DNA of 64,000 nucleotides from Raillietiella orientalis (GCA_036172245.1 JAYWIR010000019.1:124001-188000), one strand, 5' to 3'. Shown: positions 1,170 through 33,783, counted from the stretch's first letter. The notes: generated by a model not told the origin, from the sequence alone. Made by a program: numbers and translations.

Positions 1170-1285
1170 GCGCGGGAAGCAAAACTGACCTCGACCGGTT
1201 TCAAGGTTGTGGAAGTTCGGACGCAGCCTTGCGTCCATCCACCGAAGTCCTCTCTTGACCCCGTGAGGATGGATCCCCGGATGCC
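1170..1285 (-). repeat. Dispersed repeat core, inverted copy at 61552-61675
   Basis: AACCTTGAAA(C/T)CGGTCGAGGTCAGTTTT(T)GCT.CCCGCG and CACGGGGTCAAG...TCGGTGGA..GACGCAAGG shared. Confidence 0.8.
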
Positions 1286-2094
1286 ATCCTCAAATGGTGT
1301 TCTCCGTGTTGGTTCTCACGTGCAGTGCAGTCAGAGCAGCGTATACATTATAACATACACGCCTAATTTATATGCGTACGCTTCCCGTAATCAGCAGATT
1401 TACAATGGATCCACTTCTTCAGTGAATGAACACACCGTGGCATCATCGTACGTGCTTGTACTGCTGTGAACTACCCTTTGTTCCTTTGTCCGTGTGTGCG
1501 ATATCCAAGACGGTGTATGCAGATCGGATGCTGCAAGCGGGATGTGCACGCAGCGAGATAGGTTTTCACACGTACCTATGAGAGCAACACCCTCTTTGTA
1601 CAGTCGTCTGCCGCAAGTTCTTCCACCCGGACGTCGCTCGCTGAACCGCCGTCGGAGCCGTGGCCGCAGGCCGATTCGCGCGGTCTGCACAGTGCAGCCT
1701 GCGTCGGAAGGAAGCTGCATCCCGAAGTTCCAACCCACCTGAAACGAAGTGATGCATCCGTCGGATGCGAGCACGAGACGAGAGGGGGGGGGGGGAGTCA
1801 GCGCCTCTTTCGAAAACACCGGGCGGAAAACCTTCCCACTGTGCAGAGAACAAGTGCCACGGTGAAATACAGTCCACGGCCAGACTTGCATGTCCAGTGC
1901 TGCATTGTTCCTCCGCACAAAGAGGAAAACGCGTGGGGTCGTGGAAATGAAAGCAAAGCGGAACCTGGCCGTTTCCATTTCACCAGCAGCACAAGAGCTC
2001 GATGGTGGAAGCGTGAATCTATGAGGGCTTTCTCATTTGTTGATCTGATTTAACGCTGCCAATCGTTCCTCCTCACTCTTGCTTGACCGACCAG

Positions 2095-2765
2095 AAGCTC
2101 CCTCCGCCGCATTCGAGTAAGTTGCTGTTTGCGTGTACTGCCGTGTGTATTTGTACATGGAAGCGCAGGTTCCGTGCTCGATGACGCAAAGAGTGCAAGC
2201 CTACTTTCCGATTAGCCCTCGTCCACTGGCAAGCGGGACGGATGCAGCAGATCCGTTTGACAGCAAACGTAAGTGTTCAAGCTTGCTCTTTCGACACCTT
2301 GGCTGGTGGTGCGCCGTCGCGGCCGGCGTCTTCAGGGAGCCGCGACTTCCTTCCCGTGTTGCCGGCTGAAGGGATGCTGGGAAGATGGGATGAGGAAGGG
2401 GGTGCGTTCGGTTTCCCCGTTTCGTCCTCGAACGAATCCCGCGCGGCTTCCAGAGCGTTTGCTCCGTGAAAGACCTCGGTGAATCCGTCGCAGTCCACGC
2501 TGGCCATTCCCGGCACGTCTGGAATTCGATCTTGACGAGGAGCTCCGGCACTCCTCCACAGATGCTCACTTTTACGTCAAGTTCTCGAAGCTTGGGAAGG
2601 TGTGTGGTTCTGCAGGCTCGTTGAAACCAGTTTCCCACCTTTCGTTTTTTTTTTTTTTTTTTTCGTTTGATGAAGTGTGAATATGGATCAACAAAAGATG
2701 CCTGGGCCTTCGAGCAAAGATTCTTCGAAACACGCCCTGGCTCCTTCCAAGATTGTTTGAATTAG
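2095..2765 (+). CDS. Candidate 3' part of an unknown micro-exon gene (97 aa)
   Basis: Exons 2095-2116, 2216-2268, 2336-2401, 2454-2478, 2562-2599, 2676-2765 are phase-consistent; introns 52-99 nt, two with GTAAGT donors; no homology recognised; a competing minus-strand ORF exists at 2277-2516. Confidence 0.25.
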
Positions 2766-5700
2766 TGCTTTACGGCTTATGCATTCGTTAAGATTTCATA
2801 ACTTGGGAAACGAGTACCTTATATATGTAATTTTTGGATATGTGGGCTGTTTAAGCAGAGGTCCGTTCGCCAGCCTTTCCTTTACCTTATCGATGCAAGA
2901 ACAAGTGTCATTATTCTCACTTGCATGTGCTTGTTTCCTTTCTTATGTTTTGTTTTGTCTTTGCTAATCTTCAATTCCTTTTGATGGAGCTGTTTCAGAA
3001 AGTGAGAACCATGGCTGCAACAGTAGGCTTGACACGGAAGCCCCTCATTACACTCAGACATGTTCTTTTTTCCTTCTTTACTTTCTCTTCCTAAATCCAC
3101 CAAGTACTTGTTTACCTCTTAATTTTGCACTATACGTTCCCATGGCTGACAAGATTCTAGGCACATATGCCACGCATAACATTATGGATGTGATGATAAA
3201 ATAGCACGCAGAAGCTGAAAGGATATGCGATGCGACGTAAAACAAACAACTCGATAGACAAGCTAATGTCTCTGAACACCGAACACAGAAACGGGTGTTT
3301 CAAACGAGGAAAGCAAGGAATTGACCGAGTCCTACCAGGTTTCGCTTTCCCCTCGTTCCTGGGATTAGAAAATGCAGTTTTTTGTTGTCGTGGTTTCTGG
3401 CATCACGGAATACCGCGGTTGAATTTTCCACGAAACGCTCACGAGTGTCCGATTCCGTTTTCACTTTACGCGCCGTGTCTTACATAATTGTTCGACCAGA
3501 TTGAATGGCAACCCTGGAGGCGAGCGGGAATTTTCCCGGCTAGCGTAACAATGGCGCATGACGTAGGCGAAGCGGATTTGAATCGCGCCGAAAGTTTTTA
3601 CGCTCCGTTTCTGCTGAAAAGGTTGTTTTCCACTTCTTTTCTTTTCCTTTTTTCTCCCCCTCCCCCCACAATCTATTCCCCCTTGCAAACACCATTTACG
3701 CCACCGGAAGGTGATACTTGAACGACAACCAAGCAGCGAAACGCTGCAATCGTGAAATAACTATGTTTTTCTTTCGTTTCCTTTTTTTTTTTGCAAAAAA
3801 AAAAAAAAAAAAGAGGGAGGCAGAGAGAGAGAGAGAGAGAAAAAGAGCTTCTCCGTGCCTGAGAAATCAAGCCAGCTATCATGTACCCTGGACCCTAGCG
3901 TACATGTGTGCACGCGTACGCTGGAAAGCGTTTGCCTCTACAGTGCCATTTCAGGGATACCAGCAACCATCGCACTCATGCTTGCATTCACAATGTTCCG
4001 CTGATGCGCACATTCGTTCCACAAAAAATGTGCTTACAGTTTTTTCTTCTTCTTTTCGCTGCTGATCTGATTCTGCTCGCAAAGGAAATGGCGAAAGAAA
4101 GGGTGAGTTTTCTGAAGCGGTGGAAAAAAGGAGGAAAAAAGTTCCCGCGGCATCATCCACGCGTCCACCGGGATTGCGTGGAAGCGCAAACGGCGAACGC
4201 TTCTTCTTCGGTCATAAGATCGGGTGGTGGTGAGCAACGGGAACTTCTACGGCGGGAAGAGCTCCAGCGACAAGAAGCGTCGCTCCGTATCCGCCCGAAC
4301 GGCAGCTTCCGAGGTCCGGGACCGGTGATCGTTTTACGAGTGCTGCAAACACCTCTCGCGAACCCTCGGAGGCCTCGCACTTTCGGGAGGGCCCATCCAC
4401 TTTGTCATCTGCTTATCTCTCTCTGCCTTGCGAGGGCGCGTCCGCAGATCGGAGCCGACCTGCGGGAGGCGTAGCATGTCGTCGTGGCTCTTGAGCGCCC
4501 TGTTCTTAATTACGGGAGAGACCATTTCGGAGGAACCGCATCAGTTTTCTTTTGCTGCTCCTTTCGTTGCTGCTGCCATTCATCAGCTGGAAAGCGCGTC
4601 CACGTTGAGTAATGCTTTGAAAGAATGCAAAGACAAAGATTTGCTTTCTCTCGTGTCCCGAATAATTGGTTGTGCAAGTCATAGTTGTTTGCCTGTGTCA
4701 CATTTCGCCTGTCATCCCCAATGGGGGGACCGTTCCTCGTACAGTTCCGGCTGCCTGAATTTTTAGGTGTTTCGAAGAGATCTGATGGATCAAAAAAGCG
4801 CGTCTTTTGCCGTCCTCGTGAAGATCATAAAATGTAACACTCCTCGACCGCGGGAGCCGACTGAATTAAAGAGAAACGATTCCTCCCTCCCTTCCTCGAC
4901 TCTCTTTTCTTTGGAGCAGGTAATCTGACCACTCTAAGAGATTCACGGAGGCGTTGAAGGACTGGAGCGTGCGTAGTCGTGCGTGTAGCTGGGTCTCGTA
5001 CTCAGCAAAATGTGACGACGAATTTCTCCTCAAGGCAAACATGATCTTCGCAGTCATCAAACGAAGCTTTTCCAAAGTCTGTTAATTCAGGTTCTCCAAA
5101 GGGGAAGCGAGTTCGAACGATTCGGGGTTGAATCCAGCTTTTCCTCGATGGGTTGCCTTCGCGGAGGAGTGTTTCTTTCTTTCTTTTTCCAACCACGATC
5201 CACTCTTCCCACAGGAAACCGCCTCACTCGCTTTCCGAGAGGATCCGTGTGGATTCGTTTGCACTCCGCTTCGCTTTTTGACTGCTCGCTTTCGATTTCG
5301 TGGACGCTGCATAATTCTTGCATGGTGGTGGCCGTTGGGACATGGTCAGCCGCCTTCATCTTCCATCGGAGGAAAGGCTGCTCTCCATTCTGGCAAACAG
5401 AAAGCCAACACTACCAGAGTCGAAAAGCAGTCCTCTGAGGACAGGCACAGTGCACATTCGATGCAGTCACCTTCGATGAGGGAGACTTTTGACACAAGCA
5501 GCCCTTGATGCAGTCAACATTTTGAGAGGTAAGAGAAACCTTTTCCGACCGCGCGAAGGATGGGGGAAAAACGAGAGAGATCCATCAACTATCGGACAAA
5601 CGTTGGATGTTTCACGTGAAATCGAAGGAGAGAACGAAGCTGCCGCGTCCGAAATGTTTCCGTGGACCAATCAGCAATTTCGAGAAATCGTGGAAAATGA

Positions 5701-7400
5701 AGAGGACCGAAGGGAAGTCTCGTGCTGCGATGTCCCGACAACACCGAAGAACAAGATGGCGATCTCTAAGTTTCCTGGAATGGGAGGAGCTTCGCATCCG
5801 CGGCTTTTTCTTTGTACAACGGCGAGACTTGAAAAGAGCCACCATCACAAATGGCATCCTGAAAGGAAAGGCCGAGGAAATCCACGTTCGGCTGGGATGT
5901 GATGGGGGATTTTTGGCAAAGGATGGATGGGTGGCAGCTGAGAGCACCTCCAAGAAGAAGACGCGGCGTTGGGAACATCCGGGAAGAAACTTTCCCGCGA
6001 CGCCTCGCAGGTTCCTGTTTTCTCGGGAAGTTGGAAGAGGGGAGAGTCCATGATCTGGATGCCATCACGAACGCTCCTGTGGAGCACGCGGGAGAGAAAA
6101 CTTAGATGAGAGCGACCAAAATTTTCCAAAATTCTATATTGGCGAAGTCGTTGACCACCCGTTCAATTCAGCTCTGCAGTGGTCAGAGAGTGATGTTCTT
6201 CTCCTGAGAAGAATGCGGGAAACGGCAATTCGTGAAGAAGTTTGGATCAAATTCCATATCGTTCCATCATCATTCATGATTTTTACTCTTGTAACGTTAC
6301 TCAATTTGTTGTTCATCTGATTATAAAACTTCACGTGACTGTTCAGCAATTTGGATTCTTTTATTCCATCATCCAAAATGATTTTTTTTTTTCAATTTCG
6401 GTTACCCATCTCGGCACAATCAACGACATCCCATGAAGGCAACGTTTTTGAAATTTCGACTCCAGCAAAGGTGACCATGGCGAACGTACACTGTACCAGA
6501 AATGTTTTAAAAAGAAAGAAAGAAAGAAAAATACTGAAGCATTCGTCAGTACCGAGTGTTGGTAGTCAATCGTGTCAGTGACCGTTTGTGATGGCAAGAT
6601 AACGTGGTGTTGCGTGCATGTTACAAAAAAAAGGGGGGGGAGGGACCAGAACGCAGCAGTGTTTCTTGGAAGGGAACAAAAAGAGAACCGCCGACCCATA
6701 ATTTGAGTGGACGGATCGCGAACTGTGACCTCTGAAGCCATGGAAAATTCCAAGGCACCCCCGTCTGACGAGGTGCCCCACGACTACCGCACGTGGTGTT
6801 CTGCTTGGGGTCTGATCCTCCTCTTGTGGACGGCCGCTCGCACCGTACCACTGCCGAACTACTGCACGGTCGCCTCCTCGCGCACCAATGCGTTCCCTGG
6901 GGTCCAGATTTCAGCTGCTGCGTGAGGATCGTCGGCACGGCGAAGCGTGCGCGACCCCGTATGGAAAATTTCCCTCTTTCCGCGCGCTGCTGCTTTCGTC
7001 TCATCCGCGCAGCGATTCTCCACCTACGCGTTCCCAGCACTAGAAACAAGTCGCGCCGCCACCACCCGCCACATGCAGTGTTGCCAGGGCTTGCTTCTCG
7101 GCGCGCCGATCTAAACGCCGAAATGCTTTCCAATATTTTGGTCTTTCCCTTCAATGTTGGCATTGCGCTCGAAAAAAACAACGCAAAGCATATCGGAAAG
7201 ACCGGCCACGCTCGGTGCGTTCGAAGTCCCCGAGTGCGATGAAACTCCGAATGGACGCAGCAGTAGCTCATAGTGTTTTGGCCCGTCTAAACGCACAGAT
7301 AGATGGAAGCTTCTCATACTGGTCGTGGTGTTTTCTTCCACTGTGGCCATCGAAACTGGGCATTGCAATGCAGGGTTGCCACATTCTAGGGGGGGGGGGG

Positions 7401-7480
7401 GGTTCCGAGATGGAGCTCTGGGTGGAGAACACTCCCGCGGCGGAAGAGAAAGGCTGCGGGTTCGAATCCCGGCGGTGCAC
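7401..7480 (+). mobile_element. tRNA-derived SINE-like head (Pol III B-box)
   Basis: GCGGGTTCGAATCCCGGCGGTGC; the same 3' extension occurs at 59290-59317 and 59439-59472; no complete cloverleaf. Confidence 0.5.
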
Positions 7481-8369
7481 CCCTTCCTCCGAGGATCCCG
7501 CCTCGACGGAAGACTTTCGTGAACATCCGGCGCGGACTTTCACCTAGCAACGGGCAGGTTCGGTTCGAAAGTAGGGAAGGTGCCGCCGGTCACATGGCCA
7601 TTCCCTCTCTCGCCTGGCGCCGTTTCCATGTTTTCCCCGGACATGCATGCAACTTACCCGAGGTCGCTGATCTCCCCTTCGAACGACGTCTCCTTTTCGG
7701 TCCCTCGGGGATTCCTCGGCTCGTCGATCGCGCGCCGCCCACTTCCCGAGAAGCGCTGAGGAAGAGATCGCGCGCGCGTGGCGTGGGATACTGCCACGAG
7801 GATCGCGAGAGGTCCCGGGAGCGAACCTCACTTATCGCTTGAGGAACGGTCCGCCCATGGAAAGAAAGCCGTAGGGAACCAGTAGAGCCGGCGCCCGGCG
7901 GACGCTGACTTTGGGAACCCGGAGGCCGGGCACGTGGCGACCGCCACGCGCTCCTCCGAGCGCGCGGAGCGGCTCTGGCCGGCGGCGTGGTCGGGACGAC
8001 CGCAGCAGGGGTTACTTTGCCAGAGAGACACGGTCCCGCACCGGTCGCGAGCTCCTTCGGCTGGTCCAGTCGCAGCCCTTTCGCTCCAGAAGGACTGCAG
8101 GGTGGTCGATGCTGCCCTGAAGACACTCGTCGTTGTGGTTCTCGACTTTTTTTTTTTTTTCGCTTTTCTTTTCTTTGTTTCCCGGCGAACCAGAGAGCAC
8201 AGCGATCCTTGGAATTCCCTTGGTCCCTTGTTTCCTCGGCCCGCTGGATTTCACTCGGACTGGTCGCTCTTGGTCAGGCCGGATGATTAGTCCGGCTGGT
8301 GGAGGATCTTATCCAGATGGATGATGATGCGAGGCGCGTCCCTGCGCAAGGAGCGCTCCGGTGCTCTCT

Positions 8370-8546
8370 CCGACCGCCTCTTGACGGGCGCGCGGGGGAG
8401 CGATCGTGCTGCCACAGCCGCGAAGCGGAAACATCCGCTACCAGGTGCCGCCGTTCTCACTTCACCTAAGACTCCGCGGCCGTGAGAAATCTCCGCGGAT
8501 GGGGGAGGACACGGAAAGACGCGGGAGGCTCTCATGGGGGCAGAGG
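8370..8546 (+). repeat. 177-bp direct duplication, copy 1 (copy 2 at 10151-10327)
   Basis: Ungapped alignment, 23 mismatches in 177 nt by manual count. Confidence 0.92.
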
Positions 8547-10150
8547 AGAGCTCGTGGCATGGTTAGACTACTTGGAAGGAAAAGAAGGCGTGGGAGACGT
8601 CCATCTGGATGAGAAGCTCGGAGTTCGCGAACCACGGGGCAAAGGGCATGAGAGACGGCGGCGGCAGAGTGGGGGGTGGAAACTCCGTCTCTTTGGCACG
8701 TCAAAGGAACTTGTCCGAGGGGAAGGGGGGAGGGAGGGAGAAGGGTGGGGAAGACGCGGAACTGACTCCTCGGAAGCTGAGGTCGCACGAGGCTGTGTCC
8801 TGCTGCTGAGAGGGAAGATGGCAGGAGAAGGGACGCGTTTCCCCTGACGACCAGGCAGCGCGTTTCTTCGCGAGCTGCTTCCCGCCGCCGCTCAGCCTCT
8901 TTTTCTGGCTACTGTGGGAACACACCTATTGCCGAACTGCTCAGGGGCAGTGCCGCGCCAATAGGGGGGTGAAGGGGTGGGAGGGGGACCCATCAACCGG
9001 GAGCGCGCGCGCTCTCGTCGTCGCAGCGACGCCCTCCTGGCAAGCAGGAGAGACCGCTGCATTGTTGGAAGCGCCGGAGTGTCCGTCTGGCGGCTTTTCT
9101 CGATGGACTCTCGGGATGCATCCTGTTGCCATCGGCAGCGTGGTCCACGGTACATCTAGATCGCGTTCGGCTTCCATGGAGCCTCCACTTTCGCCACTCC
9201 CTGTCGTAGGCGTGCTGGCGGCTTCTCGTCCCGGTCCAGAGAGCGCGCCCGGTGCAATGCTGGACATTGCAAACCGCCAGACACTGCCTTTCTAGTGTTT
9301 CCCTCCTTGACTAGAAGGGAACCGGGTTCTCCGGGTCATCCTGTCCCCGGCGTTCTGGCCGTCGGCTCCGGCAAAAGCGCCGCCGCCGCCTCCTACCGGA
9401 ACCAGAGCTCCTCTGGCGGCGAAAAGCGGAAGCAGCTCCCGGAGTCCGCCTGCAACCGTCTCCGAAAGCCTTCCGATGACGCCAACGGGTTCTCTCTCGG
9501 ACGGACGGCGCGGCGGAGGCTCGACTCCTGTTCCGCGAGCGCCACCGGCTCCGGTTCCGATAGCTCCGCGGCCCGCAGGGAGCACGTTGGAAGCGGCGGG
9601 CTCTCGCGCGTTCTGTTCAGGGGGGAAAGGGCCTCGGGAAGCAGGTGTGCGTCGTCCGGCGGAGTGGGCGCCGCCCGTGGGGTCGCCAGCAGGCAGCTGC
9701 GCGTGGGGAACATAGCGGCACATCGGGGACGACGGACGAGAGTGGAAGGATCCTGGAAGCGTTCCCGAAGGCAGTAGCGCGGCGAACCCGGGCGCCAAAC
9801 GCTCGTGCACCGTTCCGGCTTCGTAGCGAGCGGATGGCGGGAAGGAAGGGGGCCAATCCGATGGCACCGTTTCCTCGCATAACAACGGCCGCAGAGGGTA
9901 CCATCGGCAGGGAAACGCTTTCCTCCTTCCCTCCTCTCTCTCCTCCTTCACCCCCCTCCCCTTCATTGCAGCACCTTCTGGGTGCTTGCTTTCGATTGCT
10001 TTCCGGGTTACGGACCCGACCGTCCCTACAGCTTCGCAGCCCTCTTCGCCCGCCCGATGGTCCCGCAGACCCGTGACCCGGACGTGCCCGTCTTCCTGTC
10101 GGATCTGCAGCGGTGGGCGCGCCCTCCAGCTCTCGGGGATCTCGCGCGTC

Positions 10151-10327
10151 CCGACCGCTTCATGGCGGGAGCGCGGGGGAGCGATCGTTCTGCCGCGGCC
10201 GCGAAGCGGAAACACCCGCTACCAGGAGCCGCCGTTCTGACGTCACCCAAGACTCCGCGGCCATGCGAAATCGCTGCGGACTGGGGAGGACACAAAAAGG
10301 CGCAGGCGGCTCTCATGGGGGCAGAGG
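10151..10327 (+). repeat. 177-bp direct duplication, copy 2
   Basis: Same segment as 8370-8546, 1781 bp downstream. Confidence 0.92.
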
Positions 10328-10800
10328 TCCCGAAGCGGACTGCACCGAGAGACATGGGTCTCCGGGGCTCGCGGCGGCTGCGGCTGTGCGAGTAGAGGAA
10401 CTTATGCACTCCGGAAATCTCCGGTGGTCGGGCCGGTCCTCAGCACGAAGGATGGCAGAGACCGGATGGTCGGTCCAGCGAACATCTTCCTTCCGTCTCG
10501 AACTTTCGGGAACCTCGTCCGTTCGGGATGCGACATGCCTTCATTAATAGGGGTCTCTCTCTCGGACGCCTCGAGTAGTACCGAGGTCTGCATGCTGGGG
10601 CTGGTCGTGACCACGACTTCCTCCGCTCGCTGGCTGCGTCTTTCGATTCGCTTGACCAAGACGACGTCCCTCCTGTGAGGAGGCGGGCACGATGTGGTTT
10701 CGAAACATCCCGTCCTTTCCAGGAGGCTGCCAGATCACCCCTGCTCCGGAGAGTCGTAGCGTCGGTAATTCTTCGAGATAGGTTCCCCGGGAAGGGACTA

Positions 10801-11069
10801 CCCTATGAATCCAAGAAGGGTTCCAGGAAGGGAGCCCGTTCCTCTCACGCTTGGGAAGGGATCTACGAAGGGAACCCTGCATCCTGGTTGTCTCCGGAGG
10901 ACTTCGAAGGGGACCGTTCGGAGACATTTTTACTTCGATTCCCGATTTTTTCTTCAAGGGAACCCAGAAAGGATCCAATATTAGTATTTTTTTTCTCCGG
11001 GGGAGACCTGCAAGGGAACCTCTCCTGTTTATTCCTCTGAAGAGAACCCAAAGGGACGCTTCCGAAATT
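10801..11069 (-). mobile_element. Dispersed non-coding repeat (MITE-like), inverted copy at 40803-41063
   Basis: Shared blocks GGAAGCGTCCCTT..GGTTCTCTTCAGAGGA, CGGAGACAACCAGG, CCCAAGCGTGAGAGGAACGG, TGGATTCATAGGG; internal AAGGG/GGAACCC motifs; no ORF. Confidence 0.75.
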
Positions 11070-11652: not shown

Positions 11653-12339
11653 ATGACGACCCACCACACGATGGAAAGCTTCATCGAGATCGTGAACAGG
11701 CTGCAAGACGTCCTCACGGCCACTGGTGTCAACCTTGCTTTGAACCTGCCGCAGATCGTGGTGGTGGGAGGTCAGAGCTCCGGAAAATCCAGCGTCCTGG
11801 AAGGGTTCGTGGGAAGGTAAGAAAAAGAAAGAAAGAAAGGGGGAAAAGGCTGGGAAGGCCTCGCAGGAAGAAGCAAACGACCGTCTGTGTTCTGAATCTC
11901 ACGTAGGGACTTCTTGCCGAGAGGCCCTGGCATCGTCACCACGAGGCCGTTGATACTGCAACTGTACAACAGTCAGGAAGGTGCGGTTACGTAGAGACCA
12001 CCACAGCGTGCATCCTCAAACATGACATTTCCAGAATACGGTCAGTTCTTGCATTCGCAGAAGAAATACACCGACTTCCGCGACATCAGAGAGGAAATAT
12101 GGGAGCAGATGAACTACGTGACGAACGTCATTTCCGATCTACCCGTGCACCTCAAAATACACTCACCGAACGGTAAAGGAAACGAAGCTCAAACACACGT
12201 CATGTGTGTTCTCTGCGCGCTGAGAACCTAACCATCTCACCTCTCTCATCCCGTGTTAGTTCTCGACTTGACTCTCGTTGACCTGCCCGGACTGATCAAA
12301 GTTCCTCTTGGTCACCAGCCTCCTGACCTGGAGATGCAG
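11653..12339 (+). CDS. Dynamin-like gene exons 1-4 (N-terminal GTPase domain, G1-G3)
   Basis: [20 protein letters not shown]...GGQSSGKS / [19 protein letters not shown] / EYGQFLH...HSPN / [16 protein letters not shown]; introns of 90, 54 and 87 nt, all GT-AG. Confidence 0.96.
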
Positions 12340-15300
12340 GTACGGAACGCCGCGCGTCCGCGTCGTGTCCCCTGCGCGCCACGCCGCCAAATCCATCCAT
12401 GCGTTCGAGAGCAAACTTGGCCACTTCAGCGGTGGCCTCATAGGGTCAGCTGACTTCGTGGGATGCCGGTAAATCACCTAACGGAAGTCTACAGCGAATA
12501 ATCGTTGTCCACTTCCGTTTGGCGATTTGATTCATCGGTAGTGGCAGCGCTGCCCTTCCGAAATTCGCGTCCTCTGGACAATGGAGGCTCGCCAACATTG
12601 CTGAGGTGGTTCGTCGGTGGCTACGCGGGGCAGGCGCTGGTTGGCAACCAGGTTTCGATTAGCAACGAGCGCGAAAAAATTTGGGGTGCGTCTCGGGAAA
12701 TGGGGCGGAGGGAAGGGGGGCGTTGCAAGTAACGGGGTATCCGTTGTTGTTTGTGCACCAAAAGTGCACCGTCGGAACCGGCATTCGGTTTCCAAGGTTC
12801 CCACGTCATCTCGGCGCACCATCTCTGAAAGCGCTGAATTTCGCGCCCGTGGATGAACGGGTGCTGCCCTCTTGCGTGAAGGAAGTGCTTGCTTGCGCTC
12901 CGCATCTCGCAAGGGAAACGACCTTCGTCTCTGGATGCGTGTGCACCTGGACTCTCCGTGCCTTGAGTTTCCCAGTCAGGCTACGTCCTTGCTCAAGGGT
13001 GGATGGACTTGCGCGGAGGGTAACCAAATGAAAGATTCATTGGAGGAAGAGACGGCCGAAAGGAAGGAAGGGGAGGGGGGGGGGAGGTGTTTCCCTCGAC
13101 ACTACTGGTGTGTGTGATAAAAGCAACAGCAGTAAATAACGGAAGGATAGGAGATGATGCATGTAGCTGATACGCGTATCACGCAAGAGGGCTGGCAGCG
13201 CGGAAGGATACAAGCAGACGGCGATCTAAGATTATACGCTTTGTGGCTTGGATGAGCGTGGAGCCAAAAATGAGTGCTCAAGCCCAGCGTTCCATTCTCG
13301 AGGTAGCTGCTACGTTGAGAAATGCGGAATCAAGTCTCGTTTCCATGGGAACTGCTCGGGGAGACTAAGGAAAGAAAAAGAAAAAAAAAAAGAGGAGGAG
13401 GAAGAACGCTTAAGAGGATTTATTCGGCCCCGTGAATGTCGCCGGAGGAAGAGTAGGAAAATTGGGGTCTCAGGTACGAAGAGAGTCGCTGATGAGCAGG
13501 CGACCAACGGGGGGTGTGCGGCAGAAGAGGAGCAGAGACGGGAAGGGCCCTGGCGTTGCCTCTTCGGCGCAGCGCTCCGCGGGAGGACGCGGATGACGTG
13601 GATGGCAGGGGAAACTATATGTTCCGTTTCCCCTTTTGCAGGAGGAATGCTGGAGGAGTGGGGGGGGGGGAGTACAGACTGCGGGTCTCGAACCGAGGAG
13701 CGACGACGATTTCCTCGGAGGGCGGCGGTATGGAAGTTTTTGTTGGTGCGCCTTCCGGAACCGCCTTCGCGGGAGTGGCGAAGAACACCGGAACAAGAGG
13801 TCAGGCGGTCTCCAGCCGACCACCCGTTCCGGCGGCTATCTGACTGGCGCCGGGTGCCTCCTCTTCGTGGCTGAAGAGCCGAAGGAGCAGGAGTCCTACA
13901 GCTTGAGCCAATGGCGTCCTCGAAGCCAAGGCCTCCGGAACCGGAAGCGAAACCAGTAACCGTCTGGTCAGAGAGCCAAAGGCGTCCTGTATTCGCCATG
14001 GGCACCGCTGGTCAGAAAGGACTCGCGTTTCCCCGTGGGCGGTCCTCCGAGCCGTCGAAGGAGAGCGAGGGTAACGGAAGGGGGGGGGGAGACTTTTTCA
14101 CCGAGGACCCGAAGGATGGAGGGGAGAAGCCGAACGGGTCGCGCGCATGCCGCAGCCTGTCCTCCGAGGGAACCGCGACAGGCGCGTACGCCGGCTGCCT
14201 GCTTCTTCGGAGAGTCCAGCTGGTTTTCGGAAAGGAATGGGACGGAGGGAAGCGACGAACACCGGGAGCCTGGCATCCGGGGGTTCCTTTCCCTCGCGCA
14301 GACCGGTGGTCGCCGGACGGCGTTGCCACTCCGCGTCTTTCCTTCTCTCCCCTTTTCCGTTCCCAGCGAGGAGAACCGCGCCAAAACTCAGACTTCTTGC
14401 CCTCGGGGTTTCCCCTCGCATTCCGGAAGAAAGGAGAGAGAGCTGTCACCGCGGCATGAGCGCGGTCTTCCGCTCCCGCGCGTTTCGTCTCGGAGGGCCC
14501 GCGCCGGCGTCCGGGCGTCGCCTCGACTCTTCCTCCTGCGCCGCCGCCGCCTCAAGCCGCCCTCCTCACGCGTCTCCCTGCTCAGATCCGGGGCATCGTC
14601 CTGAACTATATCTCCCCGGAGAACACCATCATCCTGGCGGTGACACCCGCCAACCAGGACCTCGCCAACTCGGACGCCCTTAAGATCGCACGGGAGGTCG
14701 ACCCGCAAGGTGAGGTCGTCTCTTCCTCCCCGGAGAGTCATCGTCCACTGCCTCCCCTCCCATGCTTCCCAGGAGCGCGCACCATCGGGGTAATCACTAA
14801 GCTCGACTTGATGGACGAGGGCACCGATGCGCGGGCCATCCTGGAGAACAGAGTGCTCCCCCTGCAGAAGGGGTACATCGGGGTGGTGAACCGCGGCCAG
14901 AAGGAAGTCGACGAGGACGTCTGCCTGGCGGAGGCCCTCCGCAAGGAGCGGAAGTTCCTTGGCGGCCATCCGGCCTACAGGTGGCGTCTCCCAGGGAGGG
15001 GACGGAGAAGAGGGGAAGTTGTCGCCCGCGCAGGCACCTGGCAGACCGCATGGGCGTCCCCTACCTGCAGCAGTTCCTCAGCCGGGAGCTGATGGTCCAC
15101 GTGAGGGAGAAGCTGCCGGAGATCCGCTCGCAGCTGCTGCAGCGCCTGCAGGGCATCCGCTGCCGCCTGCGGCAGACCGTGGGCTCCTTCGAGCCCGGCA
15201 AGGAAAGCAGGGACAAGGTCCTGTACAGGTGGGCAGGAGGGCGTGCGAGGAAAGAGGGAGGAAGGGAAGAATGGGAACCGCTCCCCCTTCTTCCTCCCTC

Positions 15301-18300
15301 CTCCTGCGGATTCCGGTCCAGGGTTCGAACCGACCGCCCCGCCCCTCAGGCTGATGAACGGGTTCCAGGAGCAGCTGGCCAGCGTGCTCGAGGGCAACTC
15401 CATTCGTGTGGACGTGGGCTCCGTGCAGGGGGGGTCACTGATCAACCACACCTTCTACTCGGAGATCCAGGACCTCCTTGACATCGTGAGTGGCCGCTCT
15501 ACCGTGCGCCCTTCCACCGAAGCACGGGGTCGAGGCTGCTGGGAACGCCTGCCGCCTTCTAGGACACCAACCCGGACCTCGTGGACATCGCCATCACCAT
15601 AAAGAACTTTCACGGCATCCGCTGCTCCCTCTTCCTTCCGGAGATGGTCTTCGACCGCACCGTGAAGCAGCTGATCGGCCGCTACGAGGAGCCGCTACTG
15701 AAGTCCGTGGACCTCATCACCAGCCACTTGATGAGGATCATCGAAGGATGTGCCAAGGCCGTGAGCATCCCCGATACATCTTCCTGGGCAGCCCGCCCCC
15801 GCTCCCCTTTCGCCTTCTCCTCAACCTCTCCCTCTCTCCCTTCACTTCCTGCTGCCGCAGTTCGACCGCTTTCCGCGCCTGTACCAAGAGGTTCTCCTGC
15901 TCCTGACCCAACATCTCCACAAGCAGGACCTCAAGTGCAAGGAGATGCTGCTGACGCACGTGCAGGCGGAGGCCTGCTACATGAACACGCGGCATCCAGA
16001 ATTCAAGCTGGGGAGGCTGGCCATGAGGTAAGCTTCGTTCCGTCCTTGCCTACCTCCTCCCATCGCGTCCCGCTCCAAAATCCGTGCGTCCACCTCTCAG
16101 ACTCGGGAGAGCATAGCCGAGGACCACGGAGGGGGGAGAGTGAGGGCAAATAAGAGGTCACTCGGGATCACTTAGCCATTTCACGTCGTCGCTTTTTCTC
16201 ATCCCTGCGTCGGTCTGCAAAGCCGCCGCCTTCGTCCTGCTCTTTGCCTTCTTCCCTGGGCCCCGGTGTTTCCGGATCGCTGCGATTCATCTCGCAGAAG
16301 GAACGAGAAGGCTCCTCCTTGCTCTCTCTGGATCGCCTGAACAGGAAAAGCGGCAATCGTGATGGCCAGCGCTGAAGATGCCGAGTTCACCACGCATTGC
16401 TGCAAACCGAAGCAAGGCGGTTGCCGCGAGCGGCGATTCGGTTGCAAGACCACCACGGCATCGTTGCAAAGTCGGCAGACGACAACTGAAACTACCCCTC
16501 TTTTTCACGTGCTCTCTGCTGGCAGAGAGCGCTCAGTCTCGAAATGAGAACGTTCTCGGGAAAGAGAGAGAACGTGGAGACGGAACTCGCTGCAGGCACC
16601 CAAGGGCTCATCCAAGAGCAGAAGCCCACACCGGCTCGGGGTCGTGCGTGAGTTATCCTCCCTGTCTATGCCTCTCCGCTTACTTCTTCCATTGTCTACT
16701 CGAGGCTCGCGGCTGCTCAGGTATCTATCCGCGCTGCTGCACATCAAATTTTCCTGTTCCTCCCTCGAGGAAGGAGAAAAAATCGCTCCCGGGACGAAGA
16801 TCACGGAAACTTTTCTTTTGCAAATGGGACAGCGAAGGTCCTAGGATGCAACCGTTTCTTTCCTGCCTTCCTCTTTCTCTTCCTCTCTTTTTCTTTGCCC
16901 TCTCGAAGGCATGCTTCTTCTGGCTTTCCTCTAGGTGCTGGAGTCCTTGATCTGCCGCGGCTTTGTTCTCCACTGCGGCTCTTCGAGCAGCGCCAGCGAA
17001 GAGGGCGGTGCCGACGAGTTCAGCCCGTGTCCCGACCTTCGGGCTACTCCTTGAATTCATATGCGGTTTTTTCTTTTCCTCTTATCTCCCCTCCCCATCT
17101 CGAAGATCGGAAAGCAGGCGGAAGCAGAGTCGATGCTGCGAGCAGGACGTTCCATCTTTCCCATCGTGATAGCGGCAGCACGCGCACATTCGCGAGGGGA
17201 TCTCTTCACGACGAGGTTTTGGGAGGTCCCATCGCACCGAAAAGAGCAGCCGCGTCCTCCTGGCGAATCGGGAAGCCTTCGCAGTCCTTGGGGTTCCCTT
17301 TCTTTGAGGCAGCGACGACCGCCTCCGCGGATGCACCGCGCATGGTAGAGCGCTCCCGTGAGTTCCTGTTCCTCGCGGGCAGGGAGAGCCGCGTGTCGGC
17401 CCATTCCCTTCTGGTTTCCGGACGCGACTCGGGAGTCCCCCATCACCTCATCCCGGAGTTCTTCCGGTCCTGACTGGGTTGCGTCTGTTTCACGCTTGCC
17501 GGAAGCGCGCTGGAAAAAGAGGTAGTGGAGGTTTTGGTGGCGTGGTGCCTCTTCTTCTTCCTCCGGCCTTCCTCTGGACTCGGCGCAGACCCGTGCTGGC
17601 TTCTGTTCTCCCTTCCCCCCAACGTCGAAGGGATCCCTTCCGCTTTGTGATGGCGAGACCGTGCGCGTTTCTTCGGACGGGGAGGAGGCAGCTCTCACAG
17701 AGGGGCGAGAAGTCGCGCGCAAGGTTGGAGGAGGGAGGGGGAGGGAAGTGTGCATAGAGAAAGAATTCCGGGCTAGCCGGGTGGAAATGAGGCGTCTGCC
17801 CCGGCCCGAATGCCGCGCGTCGGTCGCTCCCGAGAGCTCCTCGTCGTATGCGGACAGAACCTCCGCTGCCCGGAGTTCTTTCTTTCTCCTCCTCCTCCTG
17901 CCACCTCCTCCATTGACCGCCGCTGCTGCCGTCAGCATCGCCATCGTCACCACAGCCGTTGCCACTACTATGGTCGTCTGTTCTTTTTCAGTTCAGAAAA
18001 CTGCCTGGGGACTTCGAACGGAACGGAGCTTTCTGGAAGCGTGGGCTCCTTGAACAGGAAGGTGAGAGAGGGCCACGGGCCATACCTCTCCTCCACACGC
18101 CGTTCGAAGGTCATAATGGAAGGTCGCATGATCCTCTGCTCCCAGGGGCTCCGCAAGCAGAAGCCGTGCTTCGTCGTCCTGACCGAAGGGGAGATGGCCA
18201 TCTATAAGGACGAAAAGGTATGGGGAGCCTCCCCCTCCGTGGGGTGTCTCGGGGGTGGTTGTAAGGACGTGTTGGTAAGAAAGCAGACAGAAGACACCGC

Positions 18301-21300
18301 GTGCTCTTCAAGGAGACGAGATGCGTAGTGAAGCTGGACGAGGATTACCACGCGACCTTCGTGGTCACCTGGGATTCTGCGAAGTAAAGTTACTTCCCAG
18401 GGGTCTTTCGGGGGGAAGGGAAAATCGAATGGAGGGGGAGCCTCCGACCCCGGCTGGAGCCGACCGGTGCTTTCCAGCTTGTTCCACATGGACAGGAAGA
18501 AGCTGAAACTCCACACAAAGGGCAACACGGAGGCGTGGATAGAGGCCTTTGAGAAGGCCGGCGCCGCCATTGAGAACGCTGGAAGCCTCTGCTCGCTCAG
18601 CAGCGTCCCTTCCTCGTATTCGGTAGGTGCACTTCAGGCCACCCGCGGGTATGTCACTGCCAGAGCTCCTTGCAGCCGGAAAGCCTCCAGGAGAACCCGG
18701 ATCCCAGAGTGTTCGAGCGTAACGCGGACTGCAAGACGGTGAGGACCATCCTTCCTGAGAGATGGGGTCCACCACTTGTCTCCTCCCTCCCTTCTCATTT
18801 CATCCCGGTCCCCACCCGAGCTTGCGGGAATTTCTTCGAAGAGTTGGACCGGAGTATGTCATCCCCCGGAAGAGGACAGGTCCCCACGCGTCTCCCTTCA
18901 GTTCCCGCCTCCGTGAGGCGCTGACGCAGGTTGCCCTTCCACCCCACCCATCTTCTACGTGTTCCTGTAGCTTCCGCACTTCCCTACCTTGTCTGAACGC
19001 ACGCACTTCAGACCCCTCTATAGCCGTCCCTTCCTTGACGACCGAGCATCTGTTTCGGGTGGTGAGCTGCCAAGCGAATCGCGGGAGCAGGCGTTTCGTG
19101 ATGGGCAGCCTCCCGCGCACGTGGCCGACGCTCTCATCCACCTGGACGACCCCGCACGAGGTTTGCGGGAGCTCGTCGAAGAAGCAAATTCATCGCATGG
19201 TTCCTCTTTCCGCGCGCAAAGTATTTGGTTGGAAATGCGCAGAATGCTATGGCTATTTTTAGAACTCTAGGGGAATGGAGTTCGTTTTTCACTTGCCAGT
19301 CATGACCAGACTATTGTTAGGCTTATTTTCAGAACTGCTTGGTGAGATCGGATTGTTGCTGGAGATATTCGGGTTATTTTTGGAACTCTTGCGAGAGTTA
19401 CTTTTCTGGCTATTACTGTCACTGAACTGGATGTTATTAGGACTACTTTTAGGACTCATACGGGGTTGTTGTTACCTCTTATTAGGAACCTTGCCAGGAC
19501 TATAATGAAGGACCATTAGCATTTCCATTAAGACTTTCTTTGTTATATGGGTACGACTGTTGTACTATTATTGAGGCTATTGTTAGCTCATTATTAGGCC
19601 TGTTATCAGGCATTGTAATTCTCGGACTATTACTGGGTTATTGTTGGAGCTATTCGGAAGGCTATTCAGGAATATTGTGGCAATCGACACCATTGTCATG
19701 ATATTCCAGGGTTCATTGTTGGAGCCTTCAGTGCTTTGTAGCCGCTATTTTCTTGGAAGTAACGTTCCCCTAGGGGTCCCGGTGCCTCCGTCCCCTGGCC
19801 TTTCTCTGGAAAGGTAGAGGGACGTCTCCCGACGACGACCAGCCAGGAGCAGCTGGCCCCCGTAAACAGTGGTATTTTGGTCCTCGTCTCCTCTCTGCGC
19901 AGAGCGCACCTCCGACCAGAGGAGGCTGCATTTCTGCAAAAGTGCTCAGCGTCCCCTCGCGGCTGCAAGATCGCCCTCGCTCCACTCATCCTTTTCCTCT
20001 TCTTGCGGGAGAGGGAAGGAGACTTCCTTAGGGAATTCGCGATGCCTCTCCAAAATGCCTTGCTTTTCGCCGGTGGACCCGGAAACGGAGAAGGTGCTGA
20101 AGGTGGGGGAGGGGGCCGTACCAAGACCGACGAGGGGCCGTGGGATCCATGCTCAACTGAGAGCTCTACTTTTAGACGTCCCCATCCACGGGATTCTTTA
20201 GTAAAAGGCGAAAGAATTATACGTTAGAATGGGGACCAGAGTAACGCATAATTCTTTCACCTTTCTCTCTTCCTCTCCAAAGGAACTCCCAAATTTGTCA
20301 GGGTTTTCCACATGGAACGTTACCCTCTGACGATCTTCTTCGTCGGGAGACGACTACAAGCTAGGAGCAGCTCGCCCCCGTAAGCAGTGGCTTCTACCCC
20401 CTCCATCCTCTTCGTCTCCCTCCTTCCCGTGACTGCGGAGCAAGAGCTCCAACTCCTGCGGCGCTTCCCCAAACATCATCGGATAAGGCGACAACGGCAG
20501 TGCCATCCTTCTTGCGAGTCCGGCGTGTTTCCCCGACGATGCGAGCACTGAGCGACTGTGGACCATGCGTCCGAACGGCAGGTCCCATGGGGTCAGAGGC
20601 CGCGCGAACCTTCTTGCTCAAAAAAGAGAAGGAACTAGCCGTTCCTCTTCCCCTCAGGTGCCAGAGTGTCTCTCTCGGGAGGAGCCTTCCGCCCCAGCAT
20701 TTTCGCTATCTCTCTCGCCATCGTTCGACTCCCGAGGAAATCCTTCCTTTTGCTCTGCGGGACGCGACTCGCAGCGCTCTAGGCGGAATCTTCCGAAACT
20801 CCCCCACGACCATTCTCGCCTCGGCTGGATGCGCGCGGACGGGGTCAGTCCCTTAGCCCGCTCATTTTTCAAAATCCAGACTGGGGATGCTGGCCGCTTC
20901 CGAAAGCATCGCGCCTTTCGCGCGCCCGAGTGGCATCACCCAAGGCGTGGTCTCCGTGAGCATGTGAGCCACACGCCGCAGCGGGGTGGCGTGTCCGTGA
21001 GCGGTTGGTGGCTCGAGTGCGCGCGTCGCGTTCAGACGGCACAACAGTGGTCCGGGCACAGCGGTGTCGTGCCCGCAGGTCGTTAATAGCGCGGACACTG
21101 CGGGCACACAAACACAATGGTGCAAGGGCAGCGATGCATCCGTTTTCCTGTCAGTTGATTGGTGTATACCTGCTGCCGAGATATGGTTGTATCACATTCC
21201 TGTTTTTCCAGCAGCGGGAATGGAGCCTCAATTCCCGCTGCTTTGAAGCGTTGGGCATATTGATTGCTTCAACGCGCAGCTGTGAAATGACGGCTGCACG

Positions 21301-22202
21301 GGCGCAAGCAAAAGTTGTTGGGACGCTGCAACAGGCACTGTTCGGGAAGCCCCAAGGGGAACGTCTGGTGTGGGCTAGATGAGAGGTTGGAAGCAGGAAG
21401 AAGAGGGGCACTAGTCTGACGTGGGGTTCCCCTCCCCGTCCCTCCGTTTGCTTTCACATTTACCGTTCTCGCTTACGGCAGATGCAGGAGGGACTCCTTC
21501 CGGACTGGGAGCTTTCCGTGCGCCGGAACGAAGCGGAAGTGCCCCGTCGGACGGAGGAGGAGCAAATGCTGAGCGCAGATGTACTGGCGCGCGCCGGGTG
21601 CTTTCGAAAGTCGGTTGGCGGTGGGGTCGGGCGGGAAACTCCAGGAGGGAGGAAGGAGGAAAAGCACACAAGCTTCCCGTCCTTTCGTTTTCCTCCTACC
21701 TCCAAGGGCTGTCCGTGTCCTACCTTTGCATGTCTGTTTCTAGCTGCTCTTCAAGGACGCCAACCTGCGCTCGCAGGCCCAGCTGATCGCCAACATCGTG
21801 CGGTCGTACATGTCCATCATCGATAAGACCATACGGGACATCACCCCAAAGTACATCACTCTCACGATGATCCACGACGTAAGGACGCCTTCGGTTTTCT
21901 CTCACTTTCCTCCTCCTCTTCCTTTTTCCTCCCTGCCATTCTCAGGTGCTGAAATATGTCCGAGAGAACTTGCTGGCTGACTTGCTGTCGGACAGGGACG
22001 ACCCACAGAGTAAGGTACATAGGGATGGGCCCGATAAGGGTGCTCTGGTGGTGGTGCGAGCTTCACCTACTGACCTCGCCGTCTTTCCCAGGAGCTGCTG
22101 ATGCAGGGGTCCTCGGACGACTTCCAGGAGGTGGACGAGCTCAACAGGATGCTGGAAGTGACGAAGAAAGCCCTAGCCCTGACGACGGACATCACAATTT
22201 GA
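11653..22202 (+). CDS. Divergent classical dynamin-family GTPase (GTPase-stalk-PH-GED, no proline-rich domain), 17 exons, ~730 aa
   Basis: Phase-consistent GT-AG exon chain: 11653-11816, 11907-11980, 12035-12172, 12260-12339, 14586-14709, 14773-14980, 15034-15228, 15350-15485, 15563-15760, 15861-16027, 17992-18061, 18110-18217, 18313-18383, 18478-18622, 21744-21878, 21946-22014, 22092-22202 (2193 nt, no internal stop). Motifs: [19 protein letters not shown] (G1), [14 protein letters not shown] (G2), DLPG (G3), TKLD (G4), [47 protein letters not shown] at 22292. Confidence 0.93.
14586..16027 (+). CDS. Dynamin-like gene exons 5-10 (GTPase G4/G5 and stalk/middle domain)
   Basis: [46 protein letters not shown]...[10 protein letters not shown]...[12 protein letters not shown]...IKNFHGIR...FPRL...YMNTRHPEF; introns 53-121 nt. 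Confidence 0.96.
17992..18622 (+). CDS. Dynamin-like gene exons 11-14 (degenerate PH domain)
   Basis: [36 protein letters not shown] and ...[20 protein letters not shown] align by eye to dynamin PH (VIRKG.L...WFVLT...WYKD; W.ASFLRAG); splice phases link to exons 10 and 15. Confidence 0.85.
19246..19755. repeat. Degenerate AT-rich ~11-12-bp minisatellite (GGACTATTGTTA-like)
   Basis: Recurrent CTATT/GTTATT/GGACT units inside dynamin intron 14. Confidence 0.6.
20204..20264 (-). other. 23-bp stem / 15-nt loop hairpin
   Basis: AAAGGCGAAAGAATTATACGTTA ... TAACGCATAATTCTTTCACCTTT; the two A-C mismatches on + become G-U pairs on -. Confidence 0.8.
21744..22202 (+). CDS. Dynamin-like gene exons 15-17 (GED and stop)
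   Basis: [41 protein letters not shown] / [13 protein letters not shown] / [39 protein letters not shown]. Confidence 0.92.
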
Positions 22203-22291
22203 GTCGGAAGAGGCGGCGCTCTGCCTCGCCTTCCCTCTTCCGCAGGTTGCCGCTCGCGGACCTCCGCACTTGCCTCCCACTCCTCCTCGGG

Positions 22292-22297
22292 AATAAA
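22292..22297 (+). promoter_or_regulatory. Putative polyadenylation signal of the dynamin-like gene
   Basis: AATAAA 90 nt after the TGA stop. Confidence 0.55.
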
Positions 22298-22939
22298 CGA
22301 GAGTTCCTCCTGCCGACGCTGGCTCTGCGGGCGTTGGTTGTGGGCACAGCTGGGAGCGAAGCCCAGTCTCGGGTCAGGGGATCGTGCAGCACGGAATCCC
22401 TTGCCTCGTCTTCCGTCTGGAGAGAGGCCGACCCCCTGCAGTCCTAAGAAACAAGTCTTGGACTCGCTCCTCCTCCTCCCTGCTTCCGTTCTGAGGGATC
22501 CGGCACCAGCAGGCGGTCGCTCGTCTCTCCCCTGCCCGGCACCTGCCGTCCACCTTTGGAAGGGTTGCAAGACCCTCGAATCTTTCCAGGGTCCCCCCCC
22601 CCCTCCATGGGGAGACCTTGGTCCTGGGAAGGATTTTTCGACAGCAGAGCAGGACGGGAGGAAGTCGCTCAGTGGATGGCCGCCGCGCAAACGCGTCTCG
22701 CCCGCGCGGACGCGCGTGCTGCCATCTCCAGGCGTCCCGGCGGGAGCCGTTCCGGGCGCGCGTACTGCCGTCGCGTCCTCCTGCGGTACCTAAAGGCGAG
22801 CGCAGGCGACTGGGATGCCCAGTTTTCCGGTGCTCTCTGGGAGGCGCTGTGTGTGCCCAGGGCTTTCGCTTCGTCGCCGCCATCATTGTTTTACGACTCC
22901 CATAAAAGGTGCAATCAGTTTTGCATTTCAGTTGAATTT

Positions 22940-23115
22940 GAAAGAGAGAGAAGAAAAAGAAGAAGGGGGAGGAAAAAAAAAAAAAAAAAAAAAAAAAAGC
23001 AGAGGAGAAGGAAAGAAAAAGAAAGAGGAAAACAAAGCAAAAGAAAGAAAGAAAGAGAGAGAGATTGAGAGAGAGAGAGAGAACGAAAGAAAGAAAGAAA
23101 AAAGAGAAACGAAAG
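22940..23115. repeat. Polypurine tract with poly(A) and (GA)n
   Basis: About 175 nt almost entirely A/G. Confidence 0.9.
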
Positions 23116-31784: not shown

Positions 31785-32296
31785 GGCAGTGACCCCTCGC
31801 GCGTTGGGAAGGGCGCGGTCCCTCCCGCCCCGCTGCAGCTGGGGCGGCTTCCACCCATCCACGCTTTCTCCTCTCACTCGTCTGTCGGCGGAGGCGCGCG
31901 ACGCTGCTGGTTTCCCCGCCGGCCGCCAGGAGACACGGCGGCGCGTCTACCGTCGGTCATAGACGCCGTTCGGCACCGTATCCCGTTGCTCTCGGAATCT
32001 TCACGGTTGGGGGATCCTGGCCTCGTCCCTCCCCCAACCCTCCCCTTCTCCTCCTCCTCCCGAACAAACCATTCCGGCTATGCTTTCCATGTGCCGGGAG
32101 AGGCCGGACTCTGACCTATCGACTTTCGACGTTGCCCTCGAGGTTTTCCTCCTTCCGTCGCCTCCTTGGTCCAGATGTCGGCATCTCCAGCTCACAGATC
32201 GGGTCGTCTTCCAGAAAGGAGGTCGTGCGCCATGGAGGCGCGATTCTCGCGTCCATCCCTCCACCTCTTCCTCTCTCCCCCTCCTCCTGCTCACGA

Positions 32297-32830
32297 TCAC
32301 CACCGGTACCACCAACATGGTCACTGCCAGCCAATACCAGCAGTGCATTCAGCGTCTCCACAACTGCCATCTCCACCTTGAGAGCCACCATCATTACCAA
32401 CACCGATATAACCGCTACCATCTCTAGAGCCACCGCTGCCACTATTAACATTACAACCACCACCAGTAACATTACCATCGTCACCACCAGTGCCACCAGG
32501 ACCACCCTCAGCACTACCACCACCAGTGCCACCACTATCGTCATCATCAGGACCCACCCTCAACACTACCATCACCACCCTCGTTACCACCAAGACCACC
32601 CTCAGCACTACCACCATCACCAGTGCCATCACCAATACCGTCGCCATTGCCTCCCGCGCCACCACTGCCACTATTACCACCACAATCATGACTTAAACCA
32701 CCCTCAGCACCATTACTACCATCGTCACCAATTCCAGGGTTACTACCACCATCACCTGTTGCCATCACCATTGATAATACCACCAACACGACCAACGCCA
32801 TCGTCACCAGCACCAGCGCGACCACCCCCC
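32297..32830. repeat. Degenerate (ACC/CAT)n repeat with higher-order ACCACCCTCAGCACTACCA units
   Basis: Unit recurs near 32500, 32551, 32594 and 32696. Confidence 0.85.
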
Positions 32831-33663: not shown

Positions 33664-33783
33664 GTGAATGCCATGCCGAGGGGTCTCCCGATGCTGCTGC
33701 TCTGGGGCATCCTTCGCCGGTATCCACACAAGGTCAAGTCCACGTTGCAGCTCGCCGCCATGCTTTGCTGCGGTAGGAAGAAG
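33664..33783 (+). CDS. RhoGAP100F: RhoGAP100F/Syd-1 first coding exon (MLCCGRKK at 33760-33783)
   Basis: Branch-point-like CTAAT, pyrimidine tract and CAG acceptor ending at 33663; strong Kozak gccgccATG at 33760; AAG|GTAAGA donor in phase 0 with the exon at 51602; MLCCGR(K/R)K recalled as the N-terminus of arthropod RhoGAP100F proteins. Confidence 0.75.

Follow-up and report, generated by a model that had tools for sequence, protein, structure and literature searches.

The 64,000-nucleotide stretch of Raillietiella orientalis DNA analysed here (GCA_036172245.1 JAYWIR010000019.1:124001-188000, referred to below as the window) contains at 11653-22202, on the + strand, a dynamin gene whose predicted product lacks the C-terminal proline-rich domain (PRD) of the classical dynamins (Shibire, DNM1-3). 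We think it reasonably probable that this is a functional gene from an old side branch of the arthropod dynamins, one that is PRD-less and evolves fast, and that it is a paralogue and not an orthologue of shibire. The protein is called the window dynamin in what follows.

The gene model combines canonical GT-AG splice sites with TBLASTN alignments of three classical dynamins, which were collinear along the + strand, where the stop-to-stop frames between 11.6 and 22.2 kb contained recognisable dynamin peptides. It was found that an intact GT-AG model of 16 exons runs from an ATG at 11653 to a TGA at 22200-22202 and encodes 757 aa in 2274 nt. The features of the model are as follows.

11653..11816, + strand: exon 1, with the start codon, the N-terminal BSE helix and the P-loop (GGQSSGKSS)
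11907..11980, + strand: exon 2, switch 1 region (GIVTTRP)
12035..12172, + strand: exon 3, GTPase domain
12260..12339, + strand: exon 4, GTPase domain with the DLPG motif
14586..14709, + strand: exon 5, GTPase domain
14773..14980, + strand: exon 6, GTPase domain (TKLD motif), then the start of the middle domain
15034..15228, + strand: exon 7, middle/stalk
15350..15485, + strand: exon 8, middle/stalk
15563..15760, + strand: exon 9, middle/stalk with group-specific residues, the query that retrieved the relatives
15861..16027, + strand: exon 10, end of the stalk (…HPEF)
17992..18217, + strand: exon 11, linker followed by the opening strands of the PH-like domain, containing the optional 48-nt intron 18062-18109
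18280..18383, + strand: exon 12, central part of the PH-like domain; its acceptor is weak and its boundary uncertain
18478..18622, + strand: exon 13, closing part of the PH-like domain, including the conserved Trp helix, followed by linker
21744..21878, + strand: exon 14, first part of the GED
21946..22014, + strand: exon 15, GED
22092..22202, + strand: exon 16, final GED/BSE helix, closed by the TGA stop at 22200-22202
22292..22297, + strand: AATAAA, a candidate polyadenylation signal 89 nt past the stop

The original prediction was of an intact frame of 17 exons and 730 aa. Its place, start, stop and open frame agree with our model; the exon count and the length differ, and 17 exons and 730 aa are equally possible. 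In the PH region, enumeration found 361 GT-AG combinations that leave the frame open, and the sequence alone does not decide among these exon boundaries. The in-frame 48-nt intron in exon 11 is optional, and splicing it would drop 16 aa. An internal intron of 81 nt would reconcile 757 with 730 aa, and six candidates for it (in exons 6, 7, 8 and 10) were rejected, as they lie inside conserved sequence.

The GC content of the coding sequence by codon position is 0.58/0.35/0.83, compared to 0.58 overall in the introns, and therefore the dynamin frame is not a chance open reading frame (ORF). The codon log-odds score of the coding sequence was +0.51, whereas that of 33 intronic ORFs was -0.47 +/- 0.16. 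Exons 11-13 taken alone have values of 0.50/0.44/0.78, and because they total 475 nt, skipping them breaks the frame. The window dynamin retains 62 of the 66 columns that do not vary across 14 classical dynamins and eight outgroups, and 118 of the 174 that are invariant in the 14 classical dynamins. Judged by this periodicity, the frame-dependent PH exons and the retained invariant columns, the predicted gene bears the marks of constraint.

The domain content was evaluated by running Pfam on single-exon translations. Dynamin_N was found on the translation of exons 5-6, indicating a dynamin-type G domain, and Dynamin_M (6e-17 and 2e-11) and GED (1.6e-7) were found as well, so that the GTPase, stalk and GED of the original prediction are all recovered; the P-loop, DLPG and TKLD motifs are present in the alignments. 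Between stalk and GED, the usual place of the PH domain in a classical dynamin, lies a segment of 107 aa. A narrow hidden Markov model (HMM) of dynamin PH domains was replaced by an hhalign comparison with a more diverse, 14-row alignment of dynamin PH domains. The spliced segment aligned end to end (95 of 107 columns, P=3.8e-4) with a score of 26.5, whereas shuffled sequences scored 11.4 +/- 2.4 with a maximum of 19.9, and none of 300 reached the observed value. The Trp of the C-terminal helix is kept, and the second and third strands match well. We therefore take this segment to be a diverged PH domain, weak but real and above chance, in agreement with the PH domain that had been predicted.

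The order of GTPase, middle/stalk, PH-position insert and GED is the same as in the classical dynamins, from which the window dynamin differs in being without a PRD, more diverged and outside the arthropod shibire grouping. Over the whole protein, it is 41-43% identical to seven classical dynamins (from a mammal, two arthropods, a mollusc, an annelid and a cestode, plus a transcriptome protein), whereas those share 55-77% mutually. The identity to the same seven proteins varies along the sequence.

GTPase: 60-63%
Middle: 28-32%
PH core: 20-27%
GED: 29-40%

A further difference is that some arthropod and metagenome dynamin predictions (P0015, P0007, P0009, P0242 and P0244) contain the DLPG-region exon or the stalk exon twice in tandem, presumably because mutually exclusive exons were both read into the gene predictions, whereas the window gene has single copies of both regions.

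Relatives were sought with an exhaustive HMMER search using exon 9 as the query, which gave 185 proteins at E<=0.001. The screen covered 169 proteins, namely the 150 listed of these 185 plus 19 cluster members, and five of the 169 scored better with the window dynamin or with P0267 than with classical dynamins.

P0267: Hemiscolopendra marginata (centipede), A0A646QDW3, 652 aa
P0297: Limulus polyphemus, XP_022243093.1, annotated 'dynamin-1-like', 625 aa
P0274: JGI metagenome, 491 aa, partial
P0346: 121 aa
P0241: 70-aa ENA fragment, 52-53% identical to exon 9

The reading frame of the P0241 fragment seems to enter an intron at the same place as the donor of exon 9. In the three longer relatives, Pfam found Dynamin_N, Dynamin_M and GED (P0267 and P0297) or Dynamin_M and GED (the partial P0274), and neither a PH domain nor a PRD. 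The GED profile ends at the last residue of P0297, at most 3 residues from the C terminus of P0267 and at most 10 from that of P0274 (where it reaches profile position 91 of 92). The window dynamin likewise ends with the GED. The identity between it and these short dynamins is 31-41%, the value for the partial P0274 being 31% over 474 aligned columns. The short dynamins of Limulus, the centipede and the metagenome share with it the PKYI of the GED, the Y of a ..Y(E/K)xP stalk motif and long branches; the shared states H->Y, R->E and L->Y, at columns invariant in classical dynamins, were present in none of the eight outgroups.

In one respect, the window dynamin departs from these relatives. 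Their linker at the PH position is 35-110 aa long, whereas the window dynamin has the 107-aa PH-like domain there and not a short replacement linker. With its PH-like domain kept, the predicted architecture is the unusual one within its own group. The linker of P0274 was seen to be proline-rich and about 110 aa long, and therefore the stretch separating stalk from GED varies greatly from one member of the group to another.

Other searches brought no further relatives. In a word-index protein search, exon 9 gave seven candidates, none of which was scored, and exons 5-6 matched 7999 of 8000 scored candidates; among the best 120 matches listed for exons 5-6, none exceeded 60% identity and none was a protein of the same species. 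A metagenome scan with an alignment of exon 9 and P0241 gave 205 pattern matches, none of them confirmed. With exon 1, the metagenome scan gave 116 relatives, of which 80 loci were kept, and 70 of these 80 scored higher with classical dynamin. The window dynamin outscored the classical query P0015 in L003, L007, L036, L049, L056, L060, L061, L062, L068 and L071, and in L068 it outscored both classical queries (92 bits compared to 89 and 90). None of the exon-1 loci resembled the window dynamin, and some were used as outgroups only. In the ESM Atlas, the Limulus relative matched generic dynamin, Drp and Mx clusters only.

The C terminus of the window dynamin aligns on ...ALNIIGDIST of dynamin-2, where the PRD starts: its final residues correspond to the end of the classical GED/BSE helix, and in classical dynamins the PRD follows directly. 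The predicted gene model contains no PRD, as had been proposed, although the label "classical dynamin" that came with that proposal, being defined there by a PH domain plus a PRD, does not hold. A PRD could be encoded after all, by an alternative or unrecognised 3′ exon or by readthrough of the TGA into the ORF that follows it. Classical dynamin genes have alternative 3′ exons. The ORF at 22203-22790 (+) lies directly past the stop in the same frame and is 14% proline, ranking 33rd of 874 for proline (best 50-aa window), and a second ORF, at 22448-23065 (+), ranks 10th of 874. However, both are flat in GC by codon position (0.66/0.70/0.64 and 0.54/0.60/0.56, respectively), and their codon log-odds scores of -0.38 and -0.46 are intron-like; they could be due to chance in GC-rich DNA or be the remnant of a long-decayed PRD. 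No proline-rich stretch was present among the + strand segments that passed the codon-bias scan (trained on two genes) from 22.2 to 55 kb, where the strongest segments, at 31.2-32.8 kb, are Thr/His-rich or Leu/Ile-rich low-complexity sequence. Furthermore, the three longer relatives all end with the GED, and the AATAAA lies only 89 nt past the stop. A hidden PRD is, on this evidence, improbable.

The relationship of the window dynamin to its relatives and to the classical dynamins was evaluated in a careful tree (IQ-TREE, LG+C20+F+G4, 26 rows by 721 columns), in which the eight outgroups were translated from Drp/Vps1-like metagenome loci; neither arthropod Drp1 nor invertebrate Mx was among the rows. 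The window dynamin, P0274, P0267 and P0297 formed a clade with support of 100/99, which together with the derived residues places it in the PRD-less arthropod group, subject to a long-branch caveat. The 14 classical dynamins grouped together (98/96), and the short-dynamin clade joined them against the outgroups (93/89). A first quick tree of 31 rows, with P0267 as the sole short relative, gave the same picture. In the approximately unbiased (AU) test, placement of the window dynamin alone with the five arthropod classical dynamins was rejected (delta lnL 50.4, p=2.4e-5), which speaks against orthology with arthropod shibire, whereas placement of the whole short group with them was not rejected (delta lnL 14.5, p=0.12). 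Therefore, an early duplication of arthropod shibire and an older split both fit. The gene had been thought to be a duplicate of shibire; that it is a paralogue and not the orthologue agrees with the AU test, but it is not a private or recent copy, as it falls in a clade with Limulus, centipede and metagenome sequences, and therefore the age of the lineage is no less than that of the sampled arthropods.

Just one further gene in the window is clear, and it provides information on the host. It is a RhoGAP100F/SYD-1 gene at 55355-58000 (+), with a PDZ, C2_SYDE and RhoGAP frame at 55355-57655 (+) in one very large open exon of about 2.3 kb; its GC is 0.70 and its third-position GC 0.885. The 120 SYD-1 matches listed were arthropod RhoGAP100F/SYD-1 wherever an organism was named (nine rows had no name). 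In a quick tree, the host SYD-1 fell inside Pancrustacea (97 by SH-aLRT) and in no sampled class. Going by this gene, the host is an arthropod that evolves fast, and it is probably a pancrustacean with no close relatives among annotated species.

Several points weigh against the interpretation given at the outset. The splice sites, the 3′ end and expression are predicted from the DNA sequence, and the coding-potential model was trained on two window genes only. The Pfam PH model had no match on any of three scanned stretches of the PH region (exon 11 itself and the ORFs surrounding exons 11 and 13), and the narrow dynamin-PH HMM, made from 44 mostly vertebrate sequences, gave only 9.7 bits, although this tops all of 2000 shuffles (best shuffle 8.4). 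The three longer relatives, P0267, P0297 and P0274, are without a PH domain. The probable paralogy is read from the tree and the AU test, and the host sequence covered is the 64-kb window. Each of the four proteins in the clade sits on a long branch, of 1.1-1.6 changes per column, and long-branch attraction may inflate both their grouping and their position outside the classical dynamins, a bias that the AU test shares. The host itself is fast: its SYD-1 branch is 1.73 compared to a median of 0.46, and its SYD-1 protein is 48% identical to those of other arthropods, whereas these are 62% identical among themselves (592 columns).

A host as fast as its SYD-1 indicates would also fit a gene that is the sole shibire orthologue of the organism, diverged along with a fast lineage and with its PRD lost or missed. 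We consider this quite improbable. The AU test rejects the corresponding placement, and the derived residues and the stop at the end of the GED are common to the window, Limulus and centipede proteins. In Limulus, the SYD-1 branch is short (0.28) yet that of the short dynamin is 1.11, and therefore rapid change is a property of the gene family and not of the host alone. Cestode dynamins, from another fast lineage, are still 55-61% identical to classical dynamins.

High divergence would likewise be found in an unexpressed or decaying duplicate, that is, a pseudogene still free of disabling mutations. This is very unlikely, given that all sixteen exons are open with canonical splice sites, that the codon periodicity is strong and nearly all of the universally invariant residues are retained, and that at least three further organisms still carry the lineage.

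It is equally hard to see the gene as a Drp1- or Mx-type protein, for organelle fission or antiviral action, that has been mislabelled as a dynamin. Drp1/DNM1L and Vps1 have the order GTPase-stalk-GED, end with the GED and are PRD-less like the window dynamin, and a few of its stalk residues may resemble those of human Drp1; Drp1, however, carries an unstructured B-insert and lacks a PH domain. Mx proteins are both PRD-less and fast-evolving, as is the window dynamin. However, the similarity to Drp1 is lower in every stretch and that to Mx much lower. When contiguous stretches were compared with solved structures in the PDB, each one tested ranked dynamin-1 or dynamin-3 above DNM1L and DNM1L above Mx.

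Exons 5-6: dynamin-1 138 bits, DNM1L 93, Mx1 78
Exon 9: dynamin-1 44 bits, DNM1L 38.5, Mx1 no match
Exon 14: dynamin-1 30 bits, DNM1L 13.5, Mx1 no match

In none of the three stretches was the window dynamin closer to DNM1L or to Mx than to dynamin, so that its similarity lies on the classical side, in keeping with the original prediction of a strongly diverged, intron-containing dynamin. For P0267 and P0297 the scores were 555-561 bits with dynamin-1, 365-393 with DNM1L and 198-226 with Mx1, and therefore these two are not Drp1 or Mx orthologues either. Since the short-dynamin clade also joined the classical dynamins against the Drp/Vps1-like outgroups, in a tree without arthropod Drp1, a Drp1- or Mx-type identity is highly unlikely.

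Returning to a PRD-less paralogue of shibire, the motifs and residues present suggest that the window dynamin keeps what is needed for GTP binding and hydrolysis and for self-assembly through the stalk and GED. Among these residues is the Arg of its ..HG.R.. stalk motif, known as R399 in human dynamin-1. With a diverged PH-like module held at the usual position between stalk and GED, the protein would be a GTP-driven, self-assembling membrane-remodelling enzyme, and it may reach the membrane via the PH-like domain and/or adaptors and not via SH3-domain partners such as amphiphysin and endophilin. A dynamin without a PRD is not open to the classical type of recruitment by SH3-domain endocytic partners, and therefore the window dynamin probably acts outside the canonical clathrin/synaptic-vesicle pathway. 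A specialised fission role would be the default, and an Mx-like defence role is possible.

A more far-reaching account can be given only tentatively, and as a whole we think it unlikely. Arthropods would have, overlooked beside shibire, an old, rapidly evolving, PRD-less dynamin lineage, in which the window gene is the least reduced member, having kept an ancestral PH domain since lost from the Limulus and centipede copies. Freed from SH3-driven endocytosis, this lineage would have taken up a new job, possibly an Mx-like defence in animals without Mx, which would explain the speed of change and the repeated loss of domains. The 2025 survey of the superfamily states, in the part concerned, that D. 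melanogaster and C. elegans have no Mx (PMC11789081).

The window is GC-rich and eukaryotic, with a GC content of about 0.58 around the dynamin gene. The introns of the gene are bimodal in length, twelve being of 53-121 nt and three of 1964-3121 nt. The codon-bias scan of 1-11000 and 23000-55000 found little else that is coding-like, and therefore the surroundings of the gene are poor in genes, even though many of its own introns are very short. Within the 3.1-kb intron 13, a full-length match to the U5 spliceosomal RNA (Rfam RF00020) was found at 20133-20244 (-), with 59.3 bits compared to a gathering score of 40, covering model positions 1-117. The same intron contains, at 19263-19700 (+), a stretch in which all three + frames are open and encode leucine-rich low-complexity peptides; it looks like a degenerate repeat or the remnant of a mobile element. 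Further downstream, a Thr/His-rich low-complexity open frame with a positive codon-bias score was found at 32366-32826 (+), within a 624-aa ORF (31793-33664), and inside it a 42-bp tandem repeat of 2.6 copies (32529-32639).

The textbook view is that invertebrates have a single, highly conserved classical dynamin. In its passages on Dyn, the 2025 survey (PMC11789081) states that a PH domain is present in every animal Dyn protein, names Dyn duplications only in bony vertebrates and the flatworm Macrostomum, and leaves a PRD-less arthropod group unmentioned. No description of PRD-less arthropod dynamins was found in the full-text literature searched, the scope of which did not include the supplements of the survey, and these may list such sequences. 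It appears that the tail-less arthropod dynamins are a small, undescribed group.

If this interpretation is correct, a second, tail-less and fast-changing dynamin lineage in chelicerates, myriapods and a pancrustacean would enlarge the membrane-fission toolkit of arthropods. The group would provide a natural experiment on what a dynamin is capable of without a PRD, which no member has, and on dynamins with and without a PH domain, because the window gene has a PH-like domain and its relatives have none. If expressed, the window dynamin would be an obvious candidate for specialised work in fission or defence.

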